From positions 698-64,697 of the forward strand of contig JAVZZP010000002.1 in the NCBI GenBank assembly GCA_038885615.1: a stretch of 64,000 bases of DNA, read 5' to 3'. The position numbers and the translations under genes are program-made. The notes under the pieces were generated by a model. That model was not told the origin of the DNA, ran no database searches, and was given only the letters and a program-made list of their open reading frames with translations. Source of the DNA: Candidatus Pacearchaeota archaeon (GTDB lineage Archaea; Nanobdellota; Nanobdellia; Pacearchaeales; GW2011-AR1). Shown in pieces: positions 22,355-63,329 of this stretch (position 1 is its first letter; each line of letters opens with the position of its first letter).

Positions 22355-23386
22355 ATGGGAGTACAAATAGCAGATATTATTCCTAGGAAAGAAATAGATA
22401 TTTCTCTTTTAAAAGGAAAGACAATTGCAGTTGATGCAATGAACACTCTTTATCAATTCTTAACTACGATAAGACAGCAAGACGGAACACCGCTGATGGA
22501 TTCTAAAGGCAAAATAACCTCTCATTTGTCAGGGCTTTTTTATAGAAATATTTCTTTGCTTAGCGAAGGAATAGAACTTGTTTATGTTTTTGATGGAAAA
22601 CCATCCGAGTTAAAAAGAAAAGAACTTGAAGAAAGAGCTGAAAGAAAAAAAGAAGCATTAGAAAAATATGAGGAAGCAAAAGAAAAAGGGGAAATAGAGG
22701 AGATGGCTAAATACTCAAGGCAGTTTGTTAGGATAAATGAAGAAATAATTAAAGAAAGCAAAGAACTTTTATCTGCCTTAGGAATTTCTTTTGTTGAGTC
22801 AATAAATGAGGGAGAAGCAGAAGCCTCTTTTTTGGCAAAATCTAACGTTGTATGGGCCTGTGCTTCACAGGACTATGATTCTTTACTTTATGGAACACCT
22901 AGGCTGATTAGAAATTTAACTCTTGCTAGAAAAAGAAGAACTTCTTCAGGAGTTTTGGTAGATGTTAATCTTGAGTTGATAGAGTTGCAGCATGTTTTAG
23001 AAACATTACAAATAGATAGAGATGGTTTGATTTGTTTAGGAATTATTGTTGGGACAGATTTTAATCCGGGTGGAATCAAAGGACTAGGTCAAAAAAAAGC
23101 TCTTGAAATTGTTAGAAAATACAAATATCCTGCATTGATTTTTGATTATCTGCAAAAAAGCGGAAAATATGTTATTGATTTTATTTGGACAGATATTTTT
23201 AAGGAATTTAAAGAATATAAAGGAAATAATATTTCAAGAGTAGAAAAGAAAAAAATTGATTTTGACAAAGTTAAGAAGATCCTTCTTGAGAGAGATTTTT
23301 CAGAAGAAAGAATAGACAATGCCTTAGAAAAACTTAAAGAGATTCAAGAACAGAAAAAGCAAGTTTCCCTTAAGGATTTTTTTTAG
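22355..23386 (+). CDS. fen: flap endonuclease FEN-1
   Basis: MGVQIADIIP N-terminus; XPG-N/XPG-I motifs (AVDAMNTLYQF, GEAEASFLAK); C-terminal PIP-like tail. Track ORF starts earlier at TTG 22238. Confidence 0.85.
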   Translation: MGVQIADIIPRKEIDISLLKGKTIAVDAMNTLYQFLTTIRQQDGTPLMDSKGKITSHLSGLFYRNISLLSEGIELVYVFDGKPSELKRKELEERAERKKEALEKYEEAKEKGEIEEMAKYSRQFVRINEEIIKESKELLSALGISFVESINEGEAEASFLAKSNVVWACASQDYDSLLYGTPRLIRNLTLARKRRTSSGVLVDVNLELIELQHVLETLQIDRDGLICLGIIVGTDFNPGGIKGLGQKKALEIVRKYKYPALIFDYLQKSGKYVIDFIWTDIFKEFKEYKGNNISRVEKKKIDFDKVKKILLERDFSEERIDNALEKLKEIQEQKKQVSLKDFF

Positions 23387-24183
23387 GGAGAATCTTCTTT
23401 TATTTCTTCTAAGATTTTTATTTCGAAGTTTATTTTATTGAATTCTTCATTTATATAAAAATCTCTTATCGAAGTAAAGTTATAAATTGAGTAAGTTATA
23501 GTTTTATTATTTTTATTTTCTTTTTTTTCTTCTACTTTAACATCGAATAAGTTTTTTGTTATGTTGTTCATACAATCCATGTCTTTTTTACATTCAAGTG
23601 TTTTGTGTATGTCGTAAAAAGGAAGAAGACCTATTTTTTTAAAAATTATCTCTGCATTCAATTTATCTTTTTTTGTAATTTCTGGTACTTTGAATTCTAT
23701 TTCTTTTAGTTTAATATTTATTTTTTCATCATCTAAAAATAAATCAAAGTTTAGGTCTTTTATTTTTTCTATTAAAATTTTTTTGTAAGTATAATTGTTT
23801 TTATTTTGAAAAGAGTTATATTCGTTAATTGCTTTTATTTTTAAGCAGTTTTTAGTTGCATTATTTAAACTTTCATTTATATCTTTTTTCATTTTATCAA
23901 AAAATAAAATCTCTTCAATTTCTTTTTCTTCGTAGAATTTTTTGTTTTTAGTTAAATTGTAGTAACTATAATATGTACATTCTTCAAGATATTTTTCTAA
24001 TCTATACTCCATGTCTTTTTTTTCCAGTTGAATTTCTTCTATACTATCATAGCCTTTCAATCTAAATTCAAACTTTTCATTGTATGAAGCAATTTTGACT
24101 AAAGCATAAACACAAATAATTAAAACCATTATTGTAAATATTACTATATCTAAGTTAGCTTTTTTATTTTTCATTTTTAGCAT
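23383..24183 (-). CDS. pilin-like protein with class-III-type signal peptide (KKA|NL + hydrophobic helix)
   Basis: N-terminus MLKMKNKKANLDIVIFTIMVLIICVYALV; last gene of a 6-gene minus-strand operon. Confidence 0.45.
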   Translation of the reverse strand: MLKMKNKKANLDIVIFTIMVLIICVYALVKIASYNEKFEFRLKGYDSIEEIQLEKKDMEYRLEKYLEECTYYSYYNLTKNKKFYEEKEIEEILFFDKMKKDINESLNNATKNCLKIKAINEYNSFQNKNNYTYKKILIEKIKDLNFDLFLDDEKINIKLKEIEFKVPEITKKDKLNAEIIFKKIGLLPFYDIHKTLECKKDMDCMNNITKNLFDVKVEEKKENKNNKTITYSIYNFTSIRDFYINEEFNKINFEIKILEEIKEDSP

Positions 24184-24800
24184 TCTTCTATGTAATATTT
24201 AATTAAAGCAAAAGATTTTTCTGGAAAGAAGAAACTATAACCGTAACTTAAATCTTCTATATCTGAAAATAATTTAAAATCAGTCTGGAAAGGATATTTT
24301 TTTCCTCTAGGGTATGAAAAACAATAATTTGCTCTTCCTTTTGAGTATGCAGAAACACCATCACCTATATAAGATAGCCCATTAACTATAAAAAAAGAAC
24401 TACAAATTTTGATTATTTTGTTTTTATCATTTAATCTTTTTAGATAGTCTTCCATTTTAGGATTTATTTTATTACTGCAAAATGGGTCAATCTTTTCTAT
24501 AAAATCTTCTGTCAAATAATAAAATTTTTTATTTTCCACTTCTTCTTCAAATAAATAAAAAAGTGCTCTTTGTTCCTCCTGTGATAAAAAAGCAGCTGTT
24601 CCTACAGTTTTTACATCATCTACAATGTTATTCTTTATGTCTTTAATATTTTTTAAGCCAGCAAAAAAAACAAAAATCATCAGAATAAAAAAAATAACTA
24701 TTGTTGCTACAAACCATGAGAGCGTACTTGAAATTTGTGCTTTTTTATTTTTTTTCATTTTAAACAAAACTTTTTTTATTTCCATGATTTTGAGAAGCAA
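24177..24800 (-). CDS. pilin-like protein (KKA|QI class-III-type signal, probable start MKKNKKAQ at about 24761)
   Basis: MKKNKKAQISSTLSWFVATIVIFFILMIFVFFAGL. Confidence 0.45.
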   Translation of the reverse strand: MLLKIMEIKKVLFKMKKNKKAQISSTLSWFVATIVIFFILMIFVFFAGLKNIKDIKNNIVDDVKTVGTAAFLSQEEQRALFYLFEEEVENKKFYYLTEDFIEKIDPFCSNKINPKMEDYLKRLNDKNKIIKICSSFFIVNGLSYIGDGVSAYSKGRANYCFSYPRGKKYPFQTDFKLFSDIEDLSYGYSFFFPEKSFALIKYYIEEC

Positions 24801-29886: not shown

Positions 29887-29912
29887 AATCTTCTACTGCA
29901 AGGGCTTTCGAA

Positions 29913-30269
29913 ATGACCTTGAGAAATGATGGTTTTGAAGACGAGAAAGTTGCTTTTTTAATAAAATCCTTGCCTGTAGAAAATAAATCAAGAGATTATG
30001 GAACAATTCATGGAGAGATTAGAGACATTGGGATTATTGTTAGCTTACCTTCGCTTGTTGATTTTAATAATTTTTTAGGAACTTGGGAAGTGGCTGACGG
30101 TGTTGGAGCAGGAAGGTATATGAGAAATGCGGTTTATGTTTTAGATATAGATAAGATTACCTTGATTGAAGGATCAAATAAAGATTCAATGCCTTTTGGT
30201 ACTAAAAAAGTTTTTGATAAAAGAACAATTGTTTTTTTCCACCAGAATCATTCAAAGCTGCTTTTTTAA
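29913..30269 (+). CDS. hypothetical protein
   Basis: ORF only. Confidence 0.3.
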   Translation: MTLRNDGFEDEKVAFLIKSLPVENKSRDYGTIHGEIRDIGIIVSLPSLVDFNNFLGTWEVADGVGAGRYMRNAVYVLDIDKITLIEGSNKDSMPFGTKKVFDKRTIVFFHQNHSKLLF

Positions 30270-30289
30270 GAAGTTTATCCCCCAATAGA

Positions 30290-31261
30290 ATGTGGATGAC
30301 TTTTAGTCGTTTTGATAATGAAGAAGAGTTTAGATCTTTTAGAGCTTCCGACTTAGAAAGGTTGTTTGAAGAAGATAGGGTGGAATTGAGATTGGCTGGA
30401 GGGAGAAAATTGTTTTCATCAGAACAAGAAAAAGAATTGGAGAAGTTGGAGGGGGTTTGGGCATTATCTAAAGAAAATGATAACGGAAAAAAGATTGTTT
30501 TCTTAAAAAAACCCCACATAATTCTTTTTGCTAGAGAAGATGAACCTTCAATAGTTTCTAGATATTCTGGATTTGAAAAGGATAGCAGAGGTTATTTTAG
30601 ATTTGATATTCTTAATGATTTCTTAAACGAGGGAGAAATTATGGAAGCACAAAGTCTTTTTTTTGAACCTCGCACTAAAATGGATAGGGAATTTATAACT
30701 CTTCATTTGAGAATAGAAGAGGAGGATATGGCTTTTGAGTTTAATAAAGAGAATATAAATGTAGAAAATCTTCGGTACTATTTTTATCCAAACCTATCAA
30801 GAAACATGCTCAATAAGGATTTCGTTATTGTTGGAATGAATTATCCGCTATTAAATAAAAAATTAAGGGGCGATTTTGGGACTATTTCTTTGGCAGAGGG
30901 AGGTAAGTTTGTTGTTCCTAAAAAGAGCGATCATCCTTTAGAAGATGGTAAACCTTTTACAATAGAAGAAGTTAGGTCTTTCAGAGGGTTGCCTTTTTTA
31001 TTTGTGAATGGAAGAAAAAAAGTAGAAGTTAACCATCCTGCTAAAGGGACTTTAGAAATATCTGTTTCGATGAATGGAGTTTTAACAGCTGACAAAGATG
31101 GATCTCCTATTTTTTCTATGTGTTTTACCGACTTTAATGAAGAAAATAACCTTACAAGAAATTTATCTGAAAAAGAAAACAATGAGGTCGTTTTAGAAAA
31201 ACTTCGAATAGCTGCAGGAGCTAGTTTTTTAGATGGTTATTATATCCTTAGTGAGAAGTAA
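30290..31261 (+). CDS. hypothetical protein
   Basis: ORF only. Confidence 0.3.
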   Translation: MWMTFSRFDNEEEFRSFRASDLERLFEEDRVELRLAGGRKLFSSEQEKELEKLEGVWALSKENDNGKKIVFLKKPHIILFAREDEPSIVSRYSGFEKDSRGYFRFDILNDFLNEGEIMEAQSLFFEPRTKMDREFITLHLRIEEEDMAFEFNKENINVENLRYYFYPNLSRNMLNKDFVIVGMNYPLLNKKLRGDFGTISLAEGGKFVVPKKSDHPLEDGKPFTIEEVRSFRGLPFLFVNGRKKVEVNHPAKGTLEISVSMNGVLTADKDGSPIFSMCFTDFNEENNLTRNLSEKENNEVVLEKLRIAAGASFLDGYYILSEK

Positions 31262-31350
31262 CACTTAATCTTCTTATGATTTCATCGTAATCGACTTTAT
31301 AGGAACTAATTTCCATTAGTCTGTTTCTATTTTTAAGGAGGATATTTTTT

Positions 31351-31620
31351 CTAAGAATCCAAGATTATCATTTGGACTCTCAACATTCTTCCACTTTGAT
31401 AAAATATTATTTTTTCTCCTTCAAAAACTTTATTATCTCGATTGGCGGATCTCCACACGTCTTTTTTTATGTATTTAAAATTGTTTCTGGCTCCAATTAC
31501 ATCTTTATAGTATCTAACTGCCCAAGCTCTTTCTCCGATTTCTTTATTAAGTTTATTTATTTCTTCTTGAGCAAAGGTTTCTATATTGTCTGTTGATCTT
31601 TTTTCAACTATTTCAATCAT
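31351..31620 (-). CDS. hypothetical small protein
   Basis: ORF only. Confidence 0.25.
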   Translation of the reverse strand: MIEIVEKRSTDNIETFAQEEINKLNKEIGERAWAVRYYKDVIGARNNFKYIKKDVWRSANRDNKVFEGEKIIFYQSGRMLRVQMIILDS

Positions 31621-31707: not shown

Positions 31708-32745
31708 TTAAGGAGATCTTTTACCAAGAAAAGTATTATTTATCTCAGAGTAGTTTAAAAAAATATTTGTTTTGCAACCATATGGTTTTCCAGAAATATC
31801 TTTTAAAATATTATCTGGCATCTTTAATTCTTCTGGTTTAATATAATTTGAATAAATTCCCGTTATCCAAGATTTTCCTTCAATAGTACAATAAATAATT
31901 ATTCTTCCATCTTCAGAAATTTCCCCTACTGAGGATAATCTTCGTCCCCTAGCAGTAGTTAATTGCCCAAAATAAAGAAAGATTCTATCATTTTCTTTTT
32001 TTAAATAAAATTTGTCAACATTATTTCTTAATAATCCAAATACTAGATAGTCTTTAAGGTTTATAATTAAGTATTCTTCTTTTTTTTCTAAAATCCTCCT
32101 TCTAGTTTCTCCCCTCAAATCAACTATTCTTGGTTCTTCAACGCCCCAATAAATTAAGTTTAGCTTTCTTTCTAGGTCATCCCACGCCTCTTTTTTTTGG
32201 CAGACATAATTTGGGCCGCCCAAACCTTTTATTGTTGAGTTGTCTAAAAGAATAAGAGCTTTAAATAATTCTTCTCCTGTTTCCAACTCCTTTTTTAGAA
32301 CTTCTAAAAATTTAGAGCTTCCTCTAGTGAAAACAGAGTTATCAATATATATTTTTCTTTCGTGCGGGCCATTGAGAATATTTGAGCCAAGATATACTTC
32401 TCTAAAAGGTAAGGGTAGATTAATTATAATTTTGTCTCCTCCAACAACCCATTGTATTTCTGTCCTTTTGTAATTGCCACTTTCTTTTATATAAAAAAAA
32501 GAATTACTTGTTCCACTTTTAAATCTCCCAACTTCTTCATATCCATCTGGGCAAATATCAACTTGAATATTGTCTGGTACAATTTCTATATCTTCCCCAT
32601 CATTTCTTTGGTATTCTGGAAGATTTTTTATCCAGAGGTCAATCCTAGTTCTAAAAAGAAAGAAAGCAACCAGCAAGACGACCAGTATTACTACTATAAA
32701 AATTATAATAGGATCGCTTTGTAATTGTGCTTTTTTCTTTCCCAT
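31708..32745 (-). CDS. pilin-like secreted protein (KKA|QL class-III-type signal)
   Basis: MGKKKAQLQSDPIIIFIVVILVVLLVAFFLF. Confidence 0.4.
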   Translation of the reverse strand: MGKKKAQLQSDPIIIFIVVILVVLLVAFFLFRTRIDLWIKNLPEYQRNDGEDIEIVPDNIQVDICPDGYEEVGRFKSGTSNSFFYIKESGNYKRTEIQWVVGGDKIIINLPLPFREVYLGSNILNGPHERKIYIDNSVFTRGSSKFLEVLKKELETGEELFKALILLDNSTIKGLGGPNYVCQKKEAWDDLERKLNLIYWGVEEPRIVDLRGETRRRILEKKEEYLIINLKDYLVFGLLRNNVDKFYLKKENDRIFLYFGQLTTARGRRLSSVGEISEDGRIIIYCTIEGKSWITGIYSNYIKPEELKMPDNILKDISGKPYGCKTNIFLNYSEINNTFLGKRSP

Positions 32746-32748
32746 TTA

Positions 32749-32920
32749 TTCTCTTCCCCCAAATCTAAGAAAACCTTTGAAGTAATCTATTCCGTTAGAT
32801 AATTTTCCCCTTAATGCAAATATTATCAATAAAATTATTATCAATACTATTATCCCTAATATGAACCATCCTGTAAACTCTTGTGGCATTGAAAGAGCTC
32901 TTTTTTTAGATTTTTTCATA
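32749..32920 (-). CDS. small pilin-like protein (57 aa, below ORF-track cutoff; KRA|LS signal)
   Basis: Hand translation: MKKSKKRALSMPQEFTGWFILGIIVLIILLIIFAL...; stop TAA abuts ATG of 31708..32745. Confidence 0.3.
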
Positions 32921-45875: not shown

Positions 45876-48119
45876 ATGTTTAAGGATAAATCTTTATTTT
45901 CAACGGAAATAATCAGAAAAGAAGGTGAAAATATTCTTTATATTAATTTTATTGGTTTAGAATTTACTCCCTCTCTTGTAAACTCTCCCGAGATAATGGC
46001 AAGAGTCATCGATATTTTATCGCAAAACCCGAATGTTTCTAGAATGGTCTTTGTTTCTTACAAAAATTATAATTTTAATTTTGAGCAAGTTAACATGCTT
46101 TTAGAATTGGCGGATTTTTATAACTTTTTAATGCAAAAAGAAAAGATTCTCTCGAGTAAAAAGCTTTCATTAGTAAAAGATCCTCAAAGAGCTTTTAATT
46201 TTTTATCTGATTTTTTAATAAATCGTCTTAAACAAGATCCTGTTTTGGCATTTAAGTTATTAGAAGAGGAAATGAATTTTGTTGAAAAATTTGATGAGAA
46301 TTATTTTAATCTTTTAGACGGAATACATGAAAAATTTTCCAAACTAAAGCTAATTACAGTACTTGGAAATTATATTTATGATAGTTCTTTTAAGGGAAGA
46401 GAAATTTACTCAAAAATTTTTTATCCAGAGATAACTCCAAATTTCATTTTTTCCAGGGTTTTGTCAAAAATTCCTTCAGAATCAGAAATAGTAGATGAAT
46501 ATTCTATAGGAACTAATTTTGATAGGAGCATTGTTACCATAATAAAAGATAAGGAAAGTGCAAGATATGTTTATCATTTGTCTTGTCCCGAATATTCTCT
46601 GAAGGAAAGTTATCAGATTTTGCTTCTATCCGCTAAAAAGGTTTTATCAGAACATAAACCAACAACAGAAGAGTTTAACGATTTTGAAAGAACGAGACAG
46701 GTTTTTTTCAATGTTGCTAAAGATTTGTTAAGAGATTTATCTTCTTCTCAGGGAATTCCAATAAATAGTTCTGACATGGATCTTTTAGCTTCTATTCTTG
46801 TTAGAAATACTATTGGTTTTGGCATATTAGAGATAATACTGCAAGATGAGAATGTTCAAGACATTTTGATAAACTCCCCCACTTCAGCCTCTCCCGTTTT
46901 TATAAAACACAATAATTTTGATGAATGCTCTTCAAATATTTTTGTTTCTTACGAAGACGTAGAATCTTGGGCAGCAAAATTTAGGATGCTCTCTGGAAGG
47001 GCATTAGACGAGGCACACCCTATTTTAGATTGCTCTTTAAATTTAGAAAAAGCAAGTGCGAGGGTCGCGATTGTCCAGCAGCCTCTTTCCTCTTCAGGAA
47101 TATCTTACTCTTTAAGAAGACATAGGGATAAGCCATGGACTTTGCCTCTTTTTATAAAAAATAAGACTATAAATGGTCTTTGTGCGGGTTTGCTCTCTTT
47201 TTTAGTTGATGGTGCTAGAACGATGCTTGTTGCTGGGGCAAGGAGTTCAGGAAAGACATCTTTGCTTGGTAGTTTGATGATAGAAATCATGCCAAAGTAT
47301 AGAATAATTACAGTTGAAGATACTATCGAACTACCGGTTTTACCAATGAAAAGATTAGGGTATGACATATTGTCTATGAAAGTAAGAAGCGCTTTGACAG
47401 GAGAATCCAATGAGGTCTCAGCAGAAGAAGGAATTAGGGCCTCTTTAAGGTTGGGCGATTCGGCACTTATTGTCGGTGAAATAAGAAGCGAAGAAGCAAA
47501 ATCTTTGTATGAGGCGATGAGGGTTGGTGCTTTAGCAAACGTTGTAGCAGGTACAATTCATGGTGTTTCTCCATATGGAGTATTTGACAGAGTTGTAAAT
47601 GACCTCAATGTTCCTATCACTAGCTTTAAGGCTACGGATTGTATAATTATTGTAAATCCTATAAAAACTCCCGATGGTATGAGATCTATGAGAAGATTGC
47701 TTCAATTGACAGAAGTAAGAAAACATTGGAACAAAGATCCTTTAGATGAAGGCGGTTTTGTTGATTTAATGAAATATGACGTTGAAAAAGACCAACTGCT
47801 TCCTTCGGATGATTTAATTAACGGGGATTCTGAGATAATAAAATCAATAGCTTCAAATGTCAAGGGGTGGGCTGGAAAGTGGGATGCAGTATGGGAGAAT
47901 ATTTTATTAAGACAAAAAATAAAAGAGGAATTAGTTTCTTTATCAGAAAAAACAAAAATAAATGATTTTTTAGAAGCGGAGTTTGTTGTTAAATCAAATA
48001 ATGAATTCCATGAGATTTCCCAAAAAGTAAGAGAAGAACTTGGTTCTTTGTCTTCGGAAGATATTTTTTCAAGATGGAAAGAGTGGCTTGAAAAAGAGGC
48101 TAAAAAGTTTAATCTTTAA
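45876..48119 (+). CDS. type IV pilus/archaellum-family assembly ATPase (FlaI/TadA/VirB11 superfamily) with long N-terminal domain
   Basis: Walker A GARSSGKTS, FlaI-type RIITVEDTIEL, His-box LIVGEIRSEEA. Confidence 0.8.
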   Translation: MFKDKSLFSTEIIRKEGENILYINFIGLEFTPSLVNSPEIMARVIDILSQNPNVSRMVFVSYKNYNFNFEQVNMLLELADFYNFLMQKEKILSSKKLSLVKDPQRAFNFLSDFLINRLKQDPVLAFKLLEEEMNFVEKFDENYFNLLDGIHEKFSKLKLITVLGNYIYDSSFKGREIYSKIFYPEITPNFIFSRVLSKIPSESEIVDEYSIGTNFDRSIVTIIKDKESARYVYHLSCPEYSLKESYQILLLSAKKVLSEHKPTTEEFNDFERTRQVFFNVAKDLLRDLSSSQGIPINSSDMDLLASILVRNTIGFGILEIILQDENVQDILINSPTSASPVFIKHNNFDECSSNIFVSYEDVESWAAKFRMLSGRALDEAHPILDCSLNLEKASARVAIVQQPLSSSGISYSLRRHRDKPWTLPLFIKNKTINGLCAGLLSFLVDGARTMLVAGARSSGKTSLLGSLMIEIMPKYRIITVEDTIELPVLPMKRLGYDILSMKVRSALTGESNEVSAEEGIRASLRLGDSALIVGEIRSEEAKSLYEAMRVGALANVVAGTIHGVSPYGVFDRVVNDLNVPITSFKATDCIIIVNPIKTPDGMRSMRRLLQLTEVRKHWNKDPLDEGGFVDLMKYDVEKDQLLPSDDLINGDSEIIKSIASNVKGWAGKWDAVWENILLRQKIKEELVSLSEKTKINDFLEAEFVVKSNNEFHEISQKVREELGSLSSEDIFSRWKEWLEKEAKKFNL

Positions 48120-48143
48120 TAGAAGAATTTATTAAGCTGTTTT

Positions 48144-50354
48144 TTGTCTTATCTTAAAAGAGGGAAGATGGATTCAAAAGAATTGATCAGGGCCTATGAA
48201 AATAGGTTAAGTGAGGAGATTAATAATTTTAGTAATGAAGGATATAGTACAAGTTATAAAGAATTTCTGAAAAGTTATGAGGTGCCTTTGTCTTCTTATG
48301 AAAGATGGTGCAAGGCCTTAGGAAACATTGTTAAACTAAACCCCTCTAAAAAAGAAGAAGAAAAAATTCAAAAATTCATTCAACAAGCGCATTTAAATAT
48401 AACTCCTTCAGAAGCACTTTCTTTTTCTTTTATGTCTTTTTTTGTTATTTTCATCTTAGGGTTTTTTTTGGTTTTGGGTTATTGGTATCTTTTTACCAGT
48501 GGAAATTTTGACGATTTTCCTTTCGGGGTTTTTCTTCTTATTTTGTTTTGTTCTATATTTATTTTTTATTTTACTTATGGAATGCCTGAGAGATTGGCTT
48601 TTTTGTGGAGATTAAAGGCAAGCACTCAGATGGTGCCTGCTGTTCTATACACCGTTATATACATGAAGAATACTTCTAATTTTGAGAAAGCTATCGCTTT
48701 TGCTGCGCAACATTTGGATCCACCTCTTGCTTTGGATTTTAAAAAAATATTTTGGAATGTGGAAGTAGGAAAATATAAAAATGTCAAGGAGAGCGTTGAT
48801 GCCTATTTAGAAGAGACATGGAGAGGATATTCTTTAGAATTTATAGAGGCCTTTCAGCTAATTGAGTCTAGTTTGTATGAGCCAAATGAAGAAAGGAGAA
48901 TTTCTTTTTTGGAAAGGGCTTTGCAAGTTATTTTAGACGGAGTTTATGACAGAATGTTAAGATACACACATGAAGTAAAATCTCCTTTGACAAACATTTA
49001 TATGTTAGGGATTATTTTGCCTACACTTTCTTTGGCGATAATTCCTTTGGCTTCGGCGATGCTTCAGGGCTTTATTAAAGCAGCACATTTGTTTTTTTTG
49101 TTTAATGTTATTGTGCCTTTTGGGGTTTTTTATTTGACCTGGAATGTTATAAGCAAGAGACCTGGTGGTTATGGAAATAGCTCTTATTTAGAAAAAAATC
49201 CTTTGTACTATAAGTATATCGATAAATCTGCTTATGTCAAGGCTTTCTTTTTAGTTTTTCCTTTATTGTTAATAGGTTTTATTCCATTAATTTTTATGCA
49301 TACTCCTCTTTACGAGTGGATTGGTCTAGAAAGCAGAGAAATTCTCTTAGAGAAAATAGGATTAGGTTTTTTTGGAAAAAATACAGGAGTTTTTGGTTTT
49401 ATAAATACAAGCGAGGGTTTTAAAGGACCATTTAGTTTTATTTCAGTTATCTTTTCTTTGTTTATACCTCTTTCTATTGCATTGTTTTTTATTACTGCTT
49501 TTAAAATAAGAACAGAAGAACTTATCAGAGAAAGAAAGCGTTATAAAGAAGTTGAAGAGAGTTTTACTTCTTCTTTATTTCAATTAGGCAACAGGCTTGG
49601 AGATGGTATGCCTGCAGAAATTGCATTTGGTAAGGTTGCAGAAACCTCTAAAGGAAGTTCTTCAGAGGGATTTTTTTTAGCAGTAGAACAGAATATAACT
49701 TCTTTGGGGATGTCAGTTAGAGATGCAATATTTGATGAAAATCGTGGTGCGATTATATTTTACCCTTCTTCTTTGATTGCTATTTCTATGAAAATAATGG
49801 TTGAATCAGTAAGAAAAGGATTGCAGATTGCAGCTAGAAGTTTGTTGTCTATAGCAGAATATGTAAAGAATATGAAGAAAGTTACAGATAGGATGAAAGA
49901 TTTATTGGCAGATATTGTTTCAGATATGAAATCAAATATGACTTTTTTAGCTCCCTTGCTTTCAGGAATTATTATAGGGCTTTCTGTTATGATTACTTCA
50001 ATTTTGTTAATACTTAAAAATTTTACTTCAGTTGTTGGCGGTGAGGCAGGAAATATCGGGAGTTTTGGTGAGGGCGGTCTAGCCAGCATTATTAAGATGT
50101 TTAATGTTGAGGAAATGATTCCACCTTTTTGGTTGCAGATTATCATAGGAATTTATCTTATTCAAATAATATTTATTTTAACATCTACTTTAGTTGCTAT
50201 TAGTGAAGGAGAAGATGATTTGGAAAGAACTTATCAAACTGCAAAAAATCTTCAAACAGGAATTACTCTTTATTTTGTTATTGCTTTAATTTCAATTTTA
50301 ATCTTGTCCTTTGTTGGGGCAGTTGTTTTAAAAGGAGTTTTAAGTGAGGGATAG
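48144..50354 (+). CDS. polytopic membrane platform protein (FlaJ/TadC-like, T2SS-F family)
   Basis: 736 aa, at least 8 TMs in two clusters; immediately downstream of the ATPase. Confidence 0.55.
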   Translation: MSYLKRGKMDSKELIRAYENRLSEEINNFSNEGYSTSYKEFLKSYEVPLSSYERWCKALGNIVKLNPSKKEEEKIQKFIQQAHLNITPSEALSFSFMSFFVIFILGFFLVLGYWYLFTSGNFDDFPFGVFLLILFCSIFIFYFTYGMPERLAFLWRLKASTQMVPAVLYTVIYMKNTSNFEKAIAFAAQHLDPPLALDFKKIFWNVEVGKYKNVKESVDAYLEETWRGYSLEFIEAFQLIESSLYEPNEERRISFLERALQVILDGVYDRMLRYTHEVKSPLTNIYMLGIILPTLSLAIIPLASAMLQGFIKAAHLFFLFNVIVPFGVFYLTWNVISKRPGGYGNSSYLEKNPLYYKYIDKSAYVKAFFLVFPLLLIGFIPLIFMHTPLYEWIGLESREILLEKIGLGFFGKNTGVFGFINTSEGFKGPFSFISVIFSLFIPLSIALFFITAFKIRTEELIRERKRYKEVEESFTSSLFQLGNRLGDGMPAEIAFGKVAETSKGSSSEGFFLAVEQNITSLGMSVRDAIFDENRGAIIFYPSSLIAISMKIMVESVRKGLQIAARSLLSIAEYVKNMKKVTDRMKDLLADIVSDMKSNMTFLAPLLSGIIIGLSVMITSILLILKNFTSVVGGEAGNIGSFGEGGLASIIKMFNVEEMIPPFWLQIIIGIYLIQIIFILTSTLVAISEGEDDLERTYQTAKNLQTGITLYFVIALISILILSFVGAVVLKGVLSEG

Positions 50355-50499
50355 CAAAAACTATTTAAACTTTTTTTTTATTTTAACTTTATGGATTATG
50401 GCATTCCAGAAAAGAGGAGAACAAAAAAGGATTTGAAGTTAAAGAGAAAATATAGAGTTTATAAAAAAGGCGGTCAATTCAGAGATCAAAATATAAATA

Positions 50500-51315
50500 A
50501 TGGAAGCTGAAATTTTTTTCTTTATTTTAGTTTTGCTCTTCATTGCTTCTTTGCAGGATTTTAAAAGAAGAGAGATTGATGTTTGGTTGAACTTATTTAT
50601 TTTCTTTTGTGGTCTTTCTTTTGTTATCTTCAAATCATTTTTTTACAATGAAGTTGCATATTTAGTCAATTTTTCTTTTTTGTTAGTTTTTGTTTTTATT
50701 TTAGCTCATTTAATTTATTTTGGAAAAGTTTTTGCTGGCGGAGATTGTTCTTTGCTTTTTTGTCTTTCTCCTTTTTTCGTATCAATAGACTTTTTTAGTA
50801 GTTTTAAGAATTTCTTATTTTTTTTTGTAGTACTTTTTGCTTTGGGTTCTTTTTATGGTTTTTTTTGGAGTTTTTCTCTTTTTGTTAAGAATTTTGCATT
50901 TGTAAGAAAAAAATTGTTTTCTGGTAGGGTTTTAATCTCCTCGGCTTTTATTTTTCTTTTTTTATTTTTGTCCTTCTTTTTTAAAGAGTTTATTTTTATT
51001 TTTTTTATCGGATTTTTTTTATTTTTTAGTTATTTATTTTTAAAGTTGGAAAAAGAGCTTTTTATCAAGGAAGTTTTAACGAAGGATTTAAGAGAAGGAG
51101 ATTGGCTTGAAAAAGATTTGAGGGTCAATGGAAAAATTATTAAAAGCACATTTGATGGTCTTTCAAAAAAAGATATTTACTTTTTAAGAAATAACTTAAG
51201 AAAGGTTAAGATAAAAGACGGAATTCCCTATGGTTTTGCTTTTTTTCTTGCCTGGATAGCCTATTACTTTTTAGATTTTATTATGGAATTCTTGGTTTCA
51301 AAATTGGTAATCTAG
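50500..51315 (+). CDS. prepilin/preflagellin peptidase (FlaK/PibD family, A24-like aspartyl protease)
   Basis: ASLQDFKRREID (cf. FlaK ASVQDFRSREIE) and AGGD second catalytic Asp motif; multi-TM. Confidence 0.7.
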   Translation: MEAEIFFFILVLLFIASLQDFKRREIDVWLNLFIFFCGLSFVIFKSFFYNEVAYLVNFSFLLVFVFILAHLIYFGKVFAGGDCSLLFCLSPFFVSIDFFSSFKNFLFFFVVLFALGSFYGFFWSFSLFVKNFAFVRKKLFSGRVLISSAFIFLFLFLSFFFKEFIFIFFIGFFLFFSYLFLKLEKELFIKEVLTKDLREGDWLEKDLRVNGKIIKSTFDGLSKKDIYFLRNNLRKVKIKDGIPYGFAFFLAWIAYYFLDFIMEFLVSKLVI

Positions 51316-51892
51316 ATTTTTCAGAAGTTTTTTTTTGAGGATTTTTATTCTTTTGTTTTTTTTCAATTTTAAGCTCTTCTTGAATTTTTTTAAGCTCTTC
51401 TTCAGAAGCCCTTTTTCTTTCTTTTTCATTTCCATAAATTGGTATGACTTCTATTAGAGAATGCCCCATTAATTTTGTGGGATTGATTTTTATTTCTTTT
51501 GGTTTGTATTTCTTTTTTATTTTTGAGAAAATTTTCTTTGCTATTGAAAATGTAGTTTGTGGTATTTTTTCTATTTCTAGGTGTTTTTTAGGAATAACTA
51601 ATGAATGTCCTTCACTTAAAGGATTTATTTCAAGAACGGCAATGTTTTCTTTATCTTCATATAATATAAAAGAGGGGATTTTTTTGTTTGTTATATTACA
51701 AAAAATACAATGGGAAGATTCTTGCGTTTGTTGTTCATTATACATTTCGTTTTGTTTTAGAAAAACTTCAAGCTCTTGCTTGTTCATTGAAAGAATTTTT
51801 TCTTTTATAAAATCTCTTTTGTCCTCTGGGAAATTTTTCAACTGAGACAGAAGTTGCTCTTTTATTTGTTTTTCTTGTTCGTCTGTTAGCAT
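51281..51892 (-). CDS. HIT-like fold protein with degenerate triad and K/E-rich tail
   Basis: CIFCNI and EGHSLVIPKKH as in HIT proteins, but triad reads GHSLIEV. Confidence 0.4.
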   Translation of the reverse strand: MLTDEQEKQIKEQLLSQLKNFPEDKRDFIKEKILSMNKQELEVFLKQNEMYNEQQTQESSHCIFCNITNKKIPSFILYEDKENIAVLEINPLSEGHSLVIPKKHLEIEKIPQTTFSIAKKIFSKIKKKYKPKEIKINPTKLMGHSLIEVIPIYGNEKERKRASEEELKKIQEELKIEKKQKNKNPQKKTSEKSRLPILKPRIP

Positions 51893-58347: not shown

Positions 58348-61300
58348 ATGGTGAATAAAAAGTCTCTTGGTTTAATTTTGTTATTTGGAATGTTATTCTT
58401 TTTAGCTTTTTTTGTTTTTGCTGTACAATGGAATGAAGGTATTGAAAATTTTCAAGCTTTAGAAGATTATTTATATTTTTATAATGTTTCTCTGAATGTC
58501 ACCAATGTTTCTTGGAATTTAGAGATATCATTTATACCTGACCAAACAGATTCTATTCAGTGGGATAATGGAGCAACAATTTTAAATTTTACAAGTTTAG
58601 AACAGATACCCTGGTTTTTTTATAATTACTCCTCTTTTATTTTGAGAATAAATTCAACATTAGATAATCAGAGTGGAAAATTTCGTATTTTGTTTAGAGC
58701 AAAAGACAATGAAACCCTTGCAGGAGTTAATAATTATCTTTTTTTTATCATTAACGCAACAAACGACGCACCGGTTTTTTTAAATCTTCAAAATTTTTTG
58801 AATCCTTACAATACAAGTGCACCTGTTGGTGGAAGTTCTTTTTTTAATGTGAGTTTTAGTGGTTGGGATGAGGAAGTCCATTATCCATTAGAGATCACAA
58901 GCTTAAATTTTTTAGAATGTGCTAAGGCGCCTTGGACGAACACCTCAAATTGTTTTTTAGAAAATTCTTTTTATAGTATTGGAAATACAACTTTAATAAT
59001 TAATTTTACTAATCTAACAAAAGAAAATGTTGGAATTTATAATTTAAGTGTTTGTATCAAGGATAACATAAATTCAACAATTAATTATCCTATTTATAGG
59101 GTTTCTGATTATAATGAAAACAAGACATCTTGTCAAAATTTTTCTTTAAATGTTTTTTATTATTTAAGTATCGATGCTTCTAATTGTTCAGGGCTTTCTT
59201 TGGTTGAAGGACAAGATCTTTTTTGCTACATTAATGTTACGACGAAAAAATCTTCTGAAAGTTTTAATATATGGAGCAATGCTTTTTTGAATTTTTCAAA
59301 TGCGGATTCTTTTATAAATCAGCTGACTGGAAAAGATTGGTTTTTATCTTTGAATCAAAATAACTCGCAAGATTTTTTTAAACAAGTTTTTATTAATATA
59401 ACTAATCTGACTAAAATAAACGTCGGAAATTGGACTATAAATGTAAGTGTTAATTTAACAGACGGAAGTTTTGCTTCGCAAAATATTTCTTTTTTCGTAA
59501 ATAAAACAAATTTTGTACCGGTTTTTCTTTTTAATTTTTCTAATCCAGATAATAAAACAGCAGTTAATTCTTTAGCTTATTTTAATTTTTCTTTTTACGA
59601 CGAGGATTTTTTAATCCCGGACAAAAAATTTTATAATGAGACAATAAACTTGACAATAAGAGTCTTTAATAATTTTTCCGGAGAAGAAGTTTTTTGGCAG
59701 AATTTTACAAATAGAACTTTTGTTTATCAGGGAAATTCTTCTTATTCTAATCAGAGTTTAATTTTTACTTCAAATATAAGTCAGGTTGGAATTTGGAGAA
59801 TTAATTTTAGTTATTTGGATAAAGAAGGAAATTATGGGGAGGAAAATTTTTTCTTTGAAGTTTTAAGCAATCAACCACCAATGTGGAATCAAACAATTAT
59901 CTATGTAACCTGTTTGGTTAATTCTACAGAATCAACTACCGATTTTTGTCTCCAAAACATTAATTTAACAAACTCTTCCAATGGTTTTTTATATGCTTAT
60001 GATTTAGATAACGACACTATGGGTTTTTCTGTTATTGGGCAAGCGCCGCCAAGTTTTAGCCTAACACAAAACGGAATTTTAAATTTTAAGCCTTGGAAAA
60101 GAGATGTTTCAATTTACAGGGGGAATTGGGATTTTAATTTGAGTGTTTCTGATCCTTATTTTACAAATTCTAGTTTAAGATTCATAATAAATGTTTCAAA
60201 TGTAAATTCATTACCGAGAATAGAAAATTTAAGCTACCCTCTTTCTACAGATGAAAACAATTTAACTTTAATTTCTTTTAGAGTTTATGATGATGATTTG
60301 TTGATACCTCTGGGTTATACTTCCCCTCGAGAAGGCAATTTTACTTTTTCAAAAATTTCTTATGCTTTGTCAGGGCAACAAAATTTATCTCTTTCAGATT
60401 TTTCAGATTGGTCCCATTTAATAGACGGAAGTTCAAACAATTTTTTAGTTAATTTTTCATTTACTCCGAACAAATCACATGTTGGAAATCACACAATAAA
60501 CATAAGCGTTTATGACAGATTTGGAATTTCAACTTTGAATTGGACAGCTTTTAATATAACTGTTTTTGGAATAAACAACAAGCCAGAGTTTTCGCAAAAT
60601 TTAACTAATATTAGCACCGCTATAGGAAGAAACTTTTATTTAAAAGTCAATGCGACCGATATTGAAGATGGGGATGATTCCCAAGGAAATTTAGTTTTTA
60701 ATTATTCTTTACTAAGTAGAACTTTTTGGGGCAGAAATACGAAAACAGAAAGAATTTTTGATTGCGAAGGTTGTTTTAATTTTACGAGAGGAATTTTTAA
60801 TTTAAGTTTAAATCAAAGTCATGCTGGTGTTTATGCTATAAATGTTAGCGTTATGGATAGGGGATATTCAAATAAACCAAATGAAACTTCTTGGCAGGTT
60901 TTTTGGCTTTTCTTTTATGATTATCCAGAAATATTATCTCCGGCAGAAAATTTCCAGTTTAATTTTTCAGAGAACTCAACACAGAATTTTATTTTTTTAG
61001 CTAACCATTCTGTCGGAGATCCTCTGGTTTATGAGATTTATGTTGACAGGGTAAAATGTGCTTACCAAAATCCAAACTCTTGTATTTATGAGAATCTTAC
61101 TAGAGTTGGTCAAACAATCTATCTTGGAAATGGAATAAATGAGTACAACTTTTCAAGATATTTTGGTTTTGATGAGGAAACATATGGAAATTTAAAGAAT
61201 CTAACGTTGGTTGTTTATCCTGCTAGCGAAAGCTTGGACAACAAATCGCTTCTGAATTCTTCTAGAAATTTCAAGCTTAATATAACGCATGTTAATTTTC

Positions 61301-62361
61301 CACCAAATATATCAAATATAGGTGCTCATGGGAGTACTTATGGCACTACGACACCTATTAGAATTAATATGTCTCAATATGTTTTTGATTATGATAAGGA
61401 AGATTCTTTTTATAAAGAGAATTTAACATACTATATACAAAGCACTTCTTCAAGAAGTGAAATTTATTTAGGTTCTACTGATAGCGGAGATTTTTTATTG
61501 CCCAAAATTACAAATAATAGTTTAATAGAATTGTATGCTTTAAAGGAACTTTCAGAAACACTTTATGTTATTGCTAATGACTCTTCTAATAATTCTGTTA
61601 GAAGCAATAATTTTTCAGTTGTTTTTTCTTCACCAAATGTTCAGCAGGTTCAGGTGCCCTCTTCTGGCGGAGGAAGTTCAGCAACTCAAACGAAATTTGT
61701 TTCTTTATCTATTAGTGTTCCTACAGTTATTAGAGCAAAACTTAATGACTCTTTGGAAGTTCCGATAATAATAAGCAATAGCGGGGAAATGAAAATTTCT
61801 CAAATAAATATTGTTTCTGGTTTTAAGCAAATTTCAGATGAAAAAATAATGATTAATCTATCTTCTGATTTTATTGAGTCACTTGATATAGGTCAGTCAA
61901 AAAATATTACGGCATACCTTAAGGTAGACGCTAGAAGAGCAGGAAGATATTTGGCTTTTATAAACGCCTCTTCAAACAATCCTAGAATTTTTCAGGAAGC
62001 AAATTTTTACATAGAAATAGAAACGATTCCCGGAGTAAATGTTGAAGAAGTGTTGGTTTTTACCGAGAAGATATTGGCAGACAATCCGGAGTGTGCAGAG
62101 CTTAGGGAAAGGGTAAGAGAAGTTGAGAAATTAAGGGAAAACGGAGATTTTGAAAAAGCTATTAAATTGGCAAATGAAATTGTTGATTCTTGCAAAAAAA
62201 CAATATCTCAAAAAAGAAATTTTATTATTTTTCAGAGAGAAGTTCCTAAAGTTATTTTTATTTTAGCTTCTTCAATAGTAATAATTTTTATTGCATTTAT
62301 TTCCTTTATTATTTATAAAAGAGTTAAATTTAATAAGTCAATTAAAGAGGAATATATATGA
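58348..62361 (+). CDS. giant surface protein (1337 aa): signal peptide, sequon-rich beta domains, GS linker, C-terminal TM anchor
   Basis: MVNKKSLGLILLFGMLFFLAFFVFA; >120 N-x-S/T; SSGGGSSATQ; TM VIFILASSIVIIFIAFISFIIY + KRVKFNKS tail. Confidence 0.55.
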   Translation: MVNKKSLGLILLFGMLFFLAFFVFAVQWNEGIENFQALEDYLYFYNVSLNVTNVSWNLEISFIPDQTDSIQWDNGATILNFTSLEQIPWFFYNYSSFILRINSTLDNQSGKFRILFRAKDNETLAGVNNYLFFIINATNDAPVFLNLQNFLNPYNTSAPVGGSSFFNVSFSGWDEEVHYPLEITSLNFLECAKAPWTNTSNCFLENSFYSIGNTTLIINFTNLTKENVGIYNLSVCIKDNINSTINYPIYRVSDYNENKTSCQNFSLNVFYYLSIDASNCSGLSLVEGQDLFCYINVTTKKSSESFNIWSNAFLNFSNADSFINQLTGKDWFLSLNQNNSQDFFKQVFINITNLTKINVGNWTINVSVNLTDGSFASQNISFFVNKTNFVPVFLFNFSNPDNKTAVNSLAYFNFSFYDEDFLIPDKKFYNETINLTIRVFNNFSGEEVFWQNFTNRTFVYQGNSSYSNQSLIFTSNISQVGIWRINFSYLDKEGNYGEENFFFEVLSNQPPMWNQTIIYVTCLVNSTESTTDFCLQNINLTNSSNGFLYAYDLDNDTMGFSVIGQAPPSFSLTQNGILNFKPWKRDVSIYRGNWDFNLSVSDPYFTNSSLRFIINVSNVNSLPRIENLSYPLSTDENNLTLISFRVYDDDLLIPLGYTSPREGNFTFSKISYALSGQQNLSLSDFSDWSHLIDGSSNNFLVNFSFTPNKSHVGNHTINISVYDRFGISTLNWTAFNITVFGINNKPEFSQNLTNISTAIGRNFYLKVNATDIEDGDDSQGNLVFNYSLLSRTFWGRNTKTERIFDCEGCFNFTRGIFNLSLNQSHAGVYAINVSVMDRGYSNKPNETSWQVFWLFFYDYPEILSPAENFQFNFSENSTQNFIFLANHSVGDPLVYEIYVDRVKCAYQNPNSCIYENLTRVGQTIYLGNGINEYNFSRYFGFDEETYGNLKNLTLVVYPASESLDNKSLLNSSRNFKLNITHVNFPPNISNIGAHGSTYGTTTPIRINMSQYVFDYDKEDSFYKENLTYYIQSTSSRSEIYLGSTDSGDFLLPKITNNSLIELYALKELSETLYVIANDSSNNSVRSNNFSVVFSSPNVQQVQVPSSGGGSSATQTKFVSLSISVPTVIRAKLNDSLEVPIIISNSGEMKISQINIVSGFKQISDEKIMINLSSDFIESLDIGQSKNITAYLKVDARRAGRYLAFINASSNNPRIFQEANFYIEIETIPGVNVEEVLVFTEKILADNPECAELRERVREVEKLRENGDFEKAIKLANEIVDSCKKTISQKRNFIIFQREVPKVIFILASSIVIIFIAFISFIIYKRVKFNKSIKEEYI

Positions 62362-63329
62362 AAAAAGAGGTTGATTTAAATGAAGTTCCAGTTTTTATTG
62401 AAAGAATAGACAGAGAGTTGAGCAAAATAATAGTTGGCCAGAAGGGAATTTTTAAAGATATTTTCAGAGCAGTTCTTTGCGAAGGGCATGTTCTTTTGGA
62501 AGGAGTTCCAGGAATTGCCAAAACTTTAATGATTCAATCTTTAGCTAAAATTTTGGGTTGCAACGCCAATAGAATTCAATTTACAGTAGATCTATTGCCA
62601 ACAGATATTCTTGGAATTACTATGTATAATGAAATGGAAAAAAATTTTGAAATAGTTAAAGGACCGATTTTTGCTAATTTTTTAATTGCTGACGAGATAA
62701 ATAGGAGTCCGCCGAAAACACAATCTGCTTTGTTGGAAGCAATGCAGGAAAGGAAAGTTTCTATTGGAAAAACAGATTTTCCTTTGCCAAGGCCTTTTTT
62801 TGTTATGGCAACACAGAATCCGATAGAACAATCAGGCGTTTATCCTTTGCCAGAGGCGCAAGTAGATAGGTTTTTGTTTAAGCTTATTATGAAATATCCT
62901 AACAGCGAAGAAGAAGAAAAAATATTGGAAACAAACATTACAACAAAAAATTTTAATGATTATGACTTAAAGGCAGTTTTAAGCCCAGAAAAAATTATTG
63001 ATTTGCAAAAAAAAGTTAAGAATGTTTATTGTTCTCCGGAAGTTAAGAGGTATATTGTGGATATTGTTCAATTAACAAGAGAGAAAAATACTGAAATTTC
63101 AAAGTATTTGGTTTATGGTGCTAGTCCAAGGGCTTCTATTTCTTTGTATATTGCTGCTAAAGCAGAAGCATTAATGAACGGGCGAAATTATGTGGTTCCA
63201 GAAGATGTTAAGAATGTTGCTCATGTTGTTTTAAGACACAGGCTAATTTTGAGTTTTGAGGCAGAGGCAGATAAAATATCCTCTGATGAAATTGTTGATT
63301 ATTTAATAAAAAATGTTCCAGCACCATGA
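62358..63329 (+). CDS. MoxR-family AAA+ ATPase
   Basis: LLEGVPGIAKT Walker A, DEINRSPPKTQSALLEAMQE. Confidence 0.85.
   Translation: MKKEVDLNEVPVFIERIDRELSKIIVGQKGIFKDIFRAVLCEGHVLLEGVPGIAKTLMIQSLAKILGCNANRIQFTVDLLPTDILGITMYNEMEKNFEIVKGPIFANFLIADEINRSPPKTQSALLEAMQERKVSIGKTDFPLPRPFFVMATQNPIEQSGVYPLPEAQVDRFLFKLIMKYPNSEEEEKILETNITTKNFNDYDLKAVLSPEKIIDLQKKVKNVYCSPEVKRYIVDIVQLTREKNTEISKYLVYGASPRASISLYIAAKAEALMNGRNYVVPEDVKNVAHVVLRHRLILSFEAEADKISSDEIVDYLIKNVPAP

Follow-up and report, generated by a model that had tools for sequence, protein, structure and literature searches.

Loci that encode CpaF, TadC, and coiled-coil proteins are conserved in the cluster-2 DPANN archaea, i.e., in Nanohaloarchaeota, Woesearchaeota, Pacearchaeota, Nanoarchaeota, Aenigmarchaeota, and Undinarchaeota (Hamm et al. 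2024, PMC11291902). Host interaction has been proposed as the role of these CCP/type IV pilus (T4P) loci (PMC11291902), and T4P-mediated contact between DPANN archaea and their hosts has thus already been suggested (PMC11291902, PMC6142677). Archaeal type IV filaments (TFF) have also been grouped into systems. In particular, system 2 (Makarova 2016, PMC4858521; Sivabalasarma & Albers 2026, 10.64898/2026.04.22.720090; e.g., Haloferax PilB/PilC), which is mainly euryarchaeal, combines an ATPase extended at both its N- and C-terminus with a single platform, several pilins, and nearby adhesin-like proteins; arCOG02911 is its signature pilin, and a PilY-like adhesin is also characteristic of it. 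System 1 (Epd) has a two-gene platform, a 9-TM peptidase of the EppA type, and a short major pilin that lacks a globular domain. Here, these systems are compared with a locus found in a 64-kb, AT-rich stretch (GC content ~30%) of a metagenome-assembled genome (MAG) of Candidatus Pacearchaeota, referred to below as the window. Three consecutive plus-strand genes in it code for an assembly ATPase, a polytopic platform, and a prepilin peptidase (Table 1), which the initial annotation had rightly recognized as a TFF core and, also rightly, assigned to a DPANN archaeon.

On balance, the window probably encodes a complete TFF/T4P-like system of Ca. Pacearchaeota that is split into two genomic pieces, and we hold with high confidence that this TFF machine is not an archaellum. 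All four defining types of TFF parts are present and are genetically linked in the lineage, the putative subunits being recognized by motif and context. Eighty related loci were collected from GTDB species representatives with the platform alignment as the query, and the window proteins were compared with them by tblastn; the denominators of the locus counts differ (80, 66, 65, 61, 60, 59, and 48), with 66 being the loci that have enough flank for the question of the pilin cassette described below. This comparison with related DPANN genomes, which had been proposed in the initial annotation, revealed that the core, two coiled-coil genes (CC219 and CC116), and a cassette of pilin-like genes recur together in many of the related loci. 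The modal gene order in relatives is CC219(-) CC116(-) ATPase(+) platform(+) pil326(+) pil344(+) pil143(+) pil170(+) [pil207(+)] peptidase(+) HIT(-) EF1b(-) RPA(+) RadA(+). The platform alignment search found carriers in at least 575 GTDB species; among the matches listed, the labels are Pace-, Woese-, or Nanoarchaeota, with the exceptions of a single Iainarchaeum and a single 'bacterium' record. One record titled 'bacterium' (L036, DAITPU010000001.1) contains the complete archaeal locus, cassette included, and the MAG is probably mislabelled.

The window matches the CCP loci by architecture and taxon, as a CpaF-like ATPase and a TadC-like platform lie beside coiled-coil genes in both, one or two in the CCP loci and two, divergently transcribed, in the window. 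The main text of that report gives FlaF/PilA for locus 1 only, and a pilin cassette, mini-pilins, and an operon-linked A24 peptidase, as seen in the lineage of the window, do not appear in this main text (PMC11291902).

Core machinery

No variation was seen among 36 homologues in four motifs of the ATPase, namely Walker A (GARSSGKTS), the Asp box (VEDTIEL), Walker B (IVGEIR), and the His box (GTIHG), and residues 391-574 match Pfam T2SSE (E = 2.6e-13; 49.8 bits against a cut-off of 24.9). The protein also matches NCBIfam TadA (TIGR03819; 5.9e-39, 134 bits against a cut-off of 373) and FlaI (NF058587; 8.9e-38, 130.3 bits against a cut-off of 550), with TadA scoring slightly higher. Because these scores reach roughly a quarter to a third of the curated cut-offs, the ATPase is, as judged from the profiles, a member of the secretion-ATPase superfamily and the equivalog of neither TadA nor FlaI. 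When a profile of the 36 homologues was compared with the PDB, the matches were, in order, afGspE (2OAP; 3.6e-29), CpaF (6.2e-27), and FlaI (1.3e-16), a ranking that places the ATPase nearer afGspE/CpaF than FlaI. The closest structure-bearing relative, afGspE of Archaeoglobus, is a point of likeness to system 2, and the presence of TadA/CpaF among the best matches is one to Tad/Flp and Epd. Annotation pipelines (JGI) name homologues of this ATPase 'FlaI'.

The initial annotation had described the ATPase's N-terminal domain as unusually long, at about 400 aa. An extension is indeed present, but it comprises only ~205 aa and is followed by a canonical N-domain of ~200 aa: the afGspE alignment begins at profile position 209, and the alignment to the FlaI model begins at residue 269. 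No fold is recognizable in the ~205-aa extension. Nor is it unusual in kind, as N-terminal extensions are the rule among non-archaellum archaeal TFF ATPases (bioRxiv 10.64898/2026.04.22.720090), whose variable N-domains track TFF subsystems (10.64898/2026.04.22.720090). The fold of the extension and the coiled-coil pair are specific to the lineage, in contrast to system 2.

The platform, whose start is likely the ATG at 48168 used by NCBI (giving 728 aa), contains two cytoplasmic helical domains and about nine transmembrane (TM) spans. Direct profile searches gave nothing: no significant Pfam or NCBIfam match was obtained (T2SSF, E = 0.41), precomputed Pfam domains are absent in all 120 nearest homologues, and a PDB search with a profile of close homologues returned no match. 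The identity of the protein is settled instead by structure and by a deeper family alignment. In a structure comparison, its cytoplasmic domain superposes on EpsF, PilC, and TcpE, which is also a likeness to the type II secretion system (T2SS). An exhaustive profile search yielded 1222 representatives of 50%-identity clusters, and 24 of 50 divergent members individually match Pfam T2SSF (best E = 3.2e-10), in the N-terminal half of some proteins and in the C-terminal half of others, which argues for a two-domain architecture. The top PDB match of the deeper profile is GspF, via the segment 'QLgn.L..G.P.E.AL' (E = 0.18). The cytoplasmic helical T2SSF domains that characterize a TFF platform are thus found, and the protein is a genuine, highly diverged single-gene platform that stands far from FlaJ, TadC, and PilC. 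In contrast to Tad, where TadB and TadC are split, it is encoded by one fused gene of 736 aa; it differs from the two-gene platform of Epd in the same way, and from the archaellum platform in that no direct match to a FlaJ/T2SSF model exists.

The peptidase carries the catalytic motifs LQDFKRREID (D20) and AGGD (D82, of the GGD type) and matches Pfam Peptidase_A24 (5.5e-7; 30.4 bits against a cut-off of 26.5). Its only solved relative is FlaK (3S0X; 2.5e-5), and the alignment spans both Asp motifs, i.e., ASLQDFKRREID / ASVQDFRSREIE and AGGD / GGGD. Among 44 orthologues, G[GA]D is present in all and QD..RE in 38. The protein misses the FlaK equivalog cut-off by a wide margin. It has about eight hydrophobic spans, with a soluble insert of ~55 aa ahead of the last one, and is therefore not a clean fit to either of the forms distinguished by Makarova et al. 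(PMC4858521), PibD/FlaK with 5 TM spans and EppA with 9. The gene lies downstream of the platform in 48 of 65 related loci; in the window, the two are separated by a 145-bp gap in which no pilin-like ORF was found.

The three core proteins thus belong to the same superfamilies, with the same catalytic motifs, as FlaI/FlaJ/FlaK (ArlI/ArlJ/ArlK) of the archaellum. The initial description of them as FlaI/FlaJ/FlaK-like holds at the superfamily level but not at the subfamily level, since all equivalog cut-offs are widely missed and the ATPase is nearer afGspE/CpaF. The profile searches suggested in the initial annotation likewise bore out the ATPase and the peptidase, which exceed the Pfam cut-offs, but not the platform.

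Pilin-like genes and their displacement

The initial annotation had presented the locus as a core only and had thereby overlooked the two coiled-coil genes and nine ORFs with class-III-signal-like N-termini at 23.4-27.9 and 31.7-32.9 kb. When the window was scanned for ORFs in which a hydrophobic helix comes after a basic leader with [KR][GAS] at its end, these nine were flagged; they form two tight minus-strand clusters, one of seven genes (23383-27882) and one of two (31708-32919). In the first cluster, the genes encode, in order, 326, 47, 344, 143, 170, 207, and 266 aa and overlap or abut.

In 47 of 66 related loci, the interval between the platform and the peptidase holds homologues of the genes at 24.2-27.9 kb, encoded on the strand of the core genes and with their order preserved; the remaining 19 loci are 'compact', like the window and its closest relatives. 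In the window genome, the cassette is displaced upstream and inverted, so that the pilin-like genes are found 13-22 kb upstream of the core on the opposite strand. The two pieces of the cassette are separated by an insert of ~3.8 kb that holds a broken FGE-sulfatase gene and unannotated ORFs. In this insert (27924-31620), adjacent minus-strand ORFs of 113 and 171 aa both match Pfam FGE-sulfatase and appear to derive from a single gene that has been split or frameshifted; the insert also holds an 89-aa ORF and, at 29086-31261, three plus-strand ORFs that lack annotation. Its GC content of 0.326, compared with ~0.28 in the flanks, suggests an insertion or foreign DNA.

The motif N-K-[KR]-[GA] is common to six otherwise unrelated families of these proteins, in 92-100% of their members, and the helix begins ~3-6 residues later. 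Past the platform or mini-pilin, homologues of pil326 follow on the same strand in 35 of 80 loci (consensus NKKG^FLLAEETLKI, where the caret marks the putative cleavage site; motif in 24 of 26 members). Homologues of pil344 were detected in 43 of the 80 loci, in conserved order (NKKG^ELTTQQIV; 32/33), those of pil143 in 41 (NKKG^NILxENIIFI, with Glu at +5; 28/30), and those of pil170 in 39 (NKKG^xDKIxSVYWF; 32/34). For pil207, tblastn found homologues in eight of 80 loci, and blastp of the cassette ORFs found more (NKKA^QxGETxTW; 31/33). Glu at +5, which occurs in two cassette families, is shared with T2SS and bacterial pilins. Mini-protein B lies between the pil326 and pil344 families, a position that matches ORFs of 36-44 aa in relatives (tblastn E = 8e-4 to 5e-3).

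The sixth family, with mini-pilin A as its representative in the window, has the consensus KKG^(I/V)(I/V)S(E/D)YLPW (6 of 6 members) and a length of ~50-57 aa. Mini-pilin A is similar to mini-ORFs directly after the platform in relatives (42% over 55 aa in L055 and 46% over 41 aa in L019), whose products share its C-terminal tail, G..S..ID.FK.FLRFGG. An ORF of this type is the first gene after the platform, at most 1 kb past its end, in 28 of 66 loci. The Flp and Epd major pilins lack a globular head, and the ~50-aa mini-pilin, which consists of a leader and a helix, recalls both; system 1 is thus matched in its short pilin though not in its platform. The Flp motif is G^xxxxEY; G^(I/V)(I/V)S(E/D)Y of the mini-pilins resembles it, but the Glu-Tyr offset is one residue shorter, and none of 10 mini-pilins matches Flp_Fap at E <= 5. 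Moreover, in contrast to Tad/Flp loci, no TadZ, TadE/F, or secretin genes are present.

Since unrelated proteins share one site and are encoded between the platform and the peptidase, the cassette proteins fit substrates of one class III peptidase, and motif and gene context make it quite probable that they are the substrates of this machine. Two further genes are included as putative members. For pil266, which is tightly packed with the preceding cassette genes, no homologue was found in the flanks of related loci; we infer that it is part of the system. The 345-aa protein likewise has no homologue in these flanks and no family match, and its putative membership is deduced from its motif and its adjacency to mini-pilin A. 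Genes inserted among the core genes in two relatives (L001 and L002) were considered as pilins and rejected, as they encode Sec-type or coiled-coil proteins.

Table 1. Positions and main characteristics of the features discussed (window coordinates, or residues for the parts of the ATPase).
Feature	Position	Strand	Characteristics
Secretion (assembly) ATPase, 747 aa	45876..48119	+	Pfam T2SSE, NCBIfam, PDB profile, motifs
ATPase N-terminal extension, lineage-specific	residues 1-~205		beta/alpha module 9-88 and helical bundle 94-180
ATPase canonical GspE/FlaI-type N-domain	residues ~206-400		
ATPase RecA-like core	residues ~400-650		
ATPase C-terminal extension			~60-100 aa after the core
Polytopic platform, 736 aa from TTG	48144..50354	+	T2SSF-fold; single fused gene
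Class III signal (prepilin) peptidase, family A24, 271 aa	50500..51315	+	Pfam, FlaK 3S0X, motifs
Mini-pilin A, 57 aa	32746..32919	-	KKRA, hydrophobic helix, short tail G..S..ID.FK.FLRFGG
Pilin-like, 345 aa	31708..32745	-	KKKA^QLQSDP, then hydrophobic helix; abuts mini-pilin A
pil326, 326 aa	26902..27882	-	KKG^LWFGEE..., Glu at +5; first of seven-gene cassette
Mini-protein B, 47 aa	26769..26912	-	basic N-terminus, hydrophobic helix, short tail
pil344, 344 aa	25738..26772	-	MKKG^EMSVG, then hydrophobic helix; Cys-containing globular part
pil143, 143 aa	25269..25700	-	NKRA^DMIYP, then hydrophobic helix
pil170, 170 aa	24760..25272	-	MNKKA^DEKIFSLWWF...
pil207, 193 aa from internal Met (ORF to 24800)	24177..24758	-	MKKNKKA^QISSTLSWF...
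pil266, 263 aa from internal Met (ORF to 24183)	23383..24174	-	MKNKKA^NLDIVIF...; last cassette gene
CC116, soluble coiled-coil, 116 aa	45443..45793	-	divergent from ATPase; minus strand in 42/60 loci
CC219, soluble coiled-coil, 219 aa	44778..45437	-	minus strand in 46/59 loci
Giant surface protein, 1620 aa	39914..44776	+	Sec-type signal, 2x LamG_3, Ig-like domains, C-terminal TM, coiled-coil tail

Function of the system and alternative readings

Steps in the action of the system can be proposed from the established biology of T4P, T2SS, and Tad. The peptidase (D20/D82) would cleave the short basic leader after G or A at the cytoplasmic face of the membrane, and the ATPase hexamer would dock on the platform's pair of cytoplasmic helical domains. 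Movements powered by ATP would then pull processed subunits out of the membrane into a helical filament. Mini-pilin A is tentatively regarded as the major subunit, an assignment held at somewhat less than even confidence, and would give rise to a thin, headless fibre of the Flp/Epd type. The four to six larger pilin-like proteins would be minor pilins, with a part in priming assembly or in capping the tip, and would bear the binding surfaces, and the ~205-aa extension of the ATPase, together with the two coiled-coil proteins, probably forms a system-specific cytoplasmic scaffold or regulatory module. The most likely use is attachment, either to surfaces or to a host cell, and the host-attachment idea of the initial annotation is a reasonable hypothesis; adhesion or host contact has about an even chance of being the primary role.

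In its composition, the system conforms to the description of system 2, as the ATPase has the ~205-aa N-terminal and the C-terminal extension, the platform is a single gene, and the operon of relatives holds five to seven pilin-like genes. It is likened to system 2 by this description; its pilins lie outside known families, and its platform is far more diverged and has no Pfam match.

Several points weigh against a complete pilus of this kind. No member of a known pilin, archaellin, Flp, TadE, or N-methyl family was found with Pfam and NCBIfam among the window ORFs (eight in each of two scans, the second with two ORFs of relatives added), 144 cassette proteins of relatives, and 10 mini-proteins, and the proposed cleavage of the cassette proteins is deduced solely from their motif and gene context. 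Several families have a few charged or polar residues between the putative cleavage site and the helix, which makes them less canonical than model archaeal pilins. Because the pilin genes lie 13-22 kb from the core on the other strand, co-regulation with it is not evident in the window. Within the platform, an internal duplication was not significant by hhalign (E = 0.42 with a shallow and 0.053 with a deep alignment). The data, moreover, do not separate an adhesive pilus from a short pseudopilus, and archaellins or a second TFF system may sit outside the 64-kb window; KEGG-based work reports flaB in many Woesearchaeota (PMC11606122). To our knowledge, no filament has been seen for this lineage.

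The same machine may act as a short pseudopilus or piston of the T2SS/Com type, either in taking up DNA or nutrients, from the surroundings or from a host, or in secretion across the S-layer; although rather improbable, this reading is a serious rival and would imply that a symbiont of reduced metabolism depends on the machine for an essential trophic function. The gene order, in which the ATPase and the platform are followed by a small major subunit, by four or five larger pilin-like proteins, and by the peptidase, mirrors the gsp and comG operons, which are arranged as gspE-F-G-H-I-J-K...O and comGA-GG/comC. The system is near-ubiquitous in the lineage, and its ATPase and platform are conserved like informational genes: they have median identities to the window of 57% (ATPase) and ~53% (platform), while RPA, EF1b, and RadA, which form the neighborhood of the system, reach 49%, 43%, and 72%, respectively, at the same loci. 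This level of conservation and the housekeeping neighborhood suggest a function close to essential, which would fit a pilus and a pseudopilus alike. TFF machines for substrate scavenging have also been proposed in archaea (10.64898/2026.04.22.720090). However, the locus has no linked gene for a ComEC-like channel, a substrate-binding protein, or a secreted substrate, and no substrate-binding-protein domains were found in the cassette proteins; the length of the filament is not discriminated by the evidence. The system further differs from T2SS and comG in its archaeal A24B-type peptidase and in having no secretin, GspL/M, or ComEC gene and no match to the N_methyl motif.

It is considerably less probable that the cassette encodes surface proteins with uncleaved signal anchors and that the ATPase/platform pair serves in other export or in membrane remodelling, possibly with the coiled-coil proteins. 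Such a role would agree with the polar residues between the K-[GA] site and the helix and with the failure of any cassette member to match a pilin family; moreover, archaeal T4P-like loci with no identifiable pilins, possibly of changed function, have been described (Makarova 2016, PMC4858521). It is difficult to reconcile with the occurrence of one N-K-[KR]-[GA] motif in six unrelated families, with the position of the cassette between the platform and the prepilin peptidase in 47 of 66 loci, and with the conservation in the operon of a dedicated A24 peptidase with intact catalytic Asp residues.

The initial annotation had noted that archaellin and FlaF/G/H genes are missing and had concluded that the locus is not that of a motility organelle. 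This conclusion stands. In profile scans of the 64-kb window, no Arch_flagellin, FlaF/G, or FlaH was found among the ORFs tested, and none was found among the 144 cassette proteins of relatives; an archaellin N-terminal motif is absent from all six frames of the window. The only KaiC-type match in the window scores best as Rad51/RadB, and a KaiC-like gene lies near the locus in three of 80 relatives. None of the traits of an archaellum, i.e., archaellins near the locus, FlaH/FlaF/FlaG, or a FlaI equivalog, was found in the window. That the genes form an archaellum core whose archaellins and FlaF/G/H are encoded elsewhere in the genome is a reading that finds some backing in the FlaI match, in the 'FlaI' annotation of homologues, and in the KEGG assignment of flaB, flaH, flaI, flaJ, and flaK in the majority of the Woesearchaeota MAGs of one study (PMC11606122), but it is already largely refuted and deserves very little credence, given that the FlaI score is far under its cut-off and equalled by TadA, that afGspE and CpaF outrank FlaI among solved structures, that archaellum ATPases are described as minimal, without the extra N- and C-terminal domains which the window ATPase has (10.64898/2026.04.22.720090), and that the pilin-like proteins encoded alongside it in the operons of relatives are not archaellins. 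Since pipelines name the ATPase of this system 'FlaI', some of the KEGG fla calls may refer to it, and 'archaellum/motility' calls in studies of DPANN MAGs may in part reflect this pilus system.

If the locus is read as a non-archaellum pilus system, the advance over previous work is incremental, as both the idea of host attachment and the occurrence, in these lineages, of TFF loci that include coiled-coil proteins are already published. In the literature consulted, no description was found of a conserved pilin cassette whose members share a cleavage motif, of the mini-pilin, of so extremely diverged a platform, or of a cassette displaced as in the window. A further-reaching proposal, which is at present doubtful, is that of an unclassified, lineage-defining TFF subsystem of Pace-, Woese-, and Nanoarchaeota, with a headless major pilin of ~45 aa, about five minor pilins of families unknown to Pfam and NCBIfam, a platform too diverged for any profile to recognize, and a new ATPase N-domain that docks the coiled-coil pair. 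Were it to hold, the system could be an essential symbiosis organelle, either for host capture or as a conduit for uptake, rather than an optional adhesin, because its ATPase and platform are conserved like informational genes in at least 575 species. We know of no Pace- or Woesearchaeote that has been grown in culture; the locus, which is among the best-conserved non-housekeeping modules of the lineage, offers a concrete handle on how these archaea contact their partners. In particular, the peptidase and its putative substrates with the shared N-K-[KR]-[GA] site are amenable to heterologous testing, and the candidate major pilin would be useful for identification with antibodies or by cryo-electron tomography.

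Coiled-coil partners and neighboring genes

The heptad periodicity of CC116 and CC219 exceeds that of 300 of 300 shuffled sequences, and neither protein has a hydrophobic segment (maximum Kyte-Doolittle value of CC219, 0.32). CC219 begins with a helical module, continues through a linker rich in Q, Y, N, and G, and ends in a coiled coil (~102-219); it has weak matches only, to coiled-coil families of Pfam and NCBIfam. In PDB searches, neither protein had a solved relative, and only compositional noise (e.g., MHC chains) was returned. The two are probably the counterparts of the 'CCP' genes that Hamm et al. (2024, PMC11291902) described beside CpaF/TadC genes in two conserved loci, and for which a viral-attachment-like role was suggested there. 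In contrast, since the window proteins are soluble and have neither a signal peptide nor a TM segment, we infer that a role as cytoplasmic scaffold or regulator is more likely than one as exported attachment protein. The analogues of such cytoplasmic coiled-coil partners would be ArlX and ArlCDE.

The giant surface protein encoded next to CC219 (Pfam LamG_3, 7.7e-45) shares 46% identity over 755 aa with its positional counterpart in L001 and is present in three of 48 GTDB loci. As it is syntenic in the closest relatives only, this LamG/Ig protein is possibly an adhesin, at best a facultative one, and its membership in the system is uncertain. Its TM segment is followed by a cytoplasmic coiled-coil tail of ~170 aa, an unusual topology for an adhesin, and there is a weak match to the NCBIfam TafC fimbrial protein (1.2e-10), far below the cut-off.

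In some relatives, a KaiC-like ATPase of 288 aa adjoins the locus (L001, at 3630-4496, L009, L010, and L078), with ~71% identity among them. The L001 gene was considered as a FlaH analogue and system component and rejected, as it is absent from the window and confined to three of 80 loci; in this minority of relatives, it may serve as an optional regulator of the FlaH type. At 6429-7226, ~39 kb from the core, lies a gene for a MinD/ParA-family ATPase, and a MinD-like gene lies near the locus in one of 80 relatives; stand-alone MinD/FleN ATPases have been proposed to serve clade 1/2 pili (Makarova et al., PMC4858521).

The window contains two HIT-family genes (51281-51892 and 3037-3384) with no evident functional link to the pilus system. 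The former is convergent with the peptidase gene, neighbors the locus in 44 of 61 relatives, and has an N-terminal extension of ~60 aa. A scan of the window for sigma-70 promoters and terminators showed no enrichment, its model being bacterial and inapplicable to archaea. A secreted protein of 250 aa (1527-2279) has a weak PEP-CTERM-like match at its C-terminus (E = 0.0012, just under the cut-off), hinting at an archaeosortase-type signal. Finally, a second giant surface protein (1337 aa), with a Sec-like signal and a weak Ig-like match, is encoded within 58348-63326 and is directly followed, with overlapping stop and start codons, by a MoxR-type AAA+ ATPase (AAA_3, 1.5e-61); the two may form a chaperone/adhesin pair.

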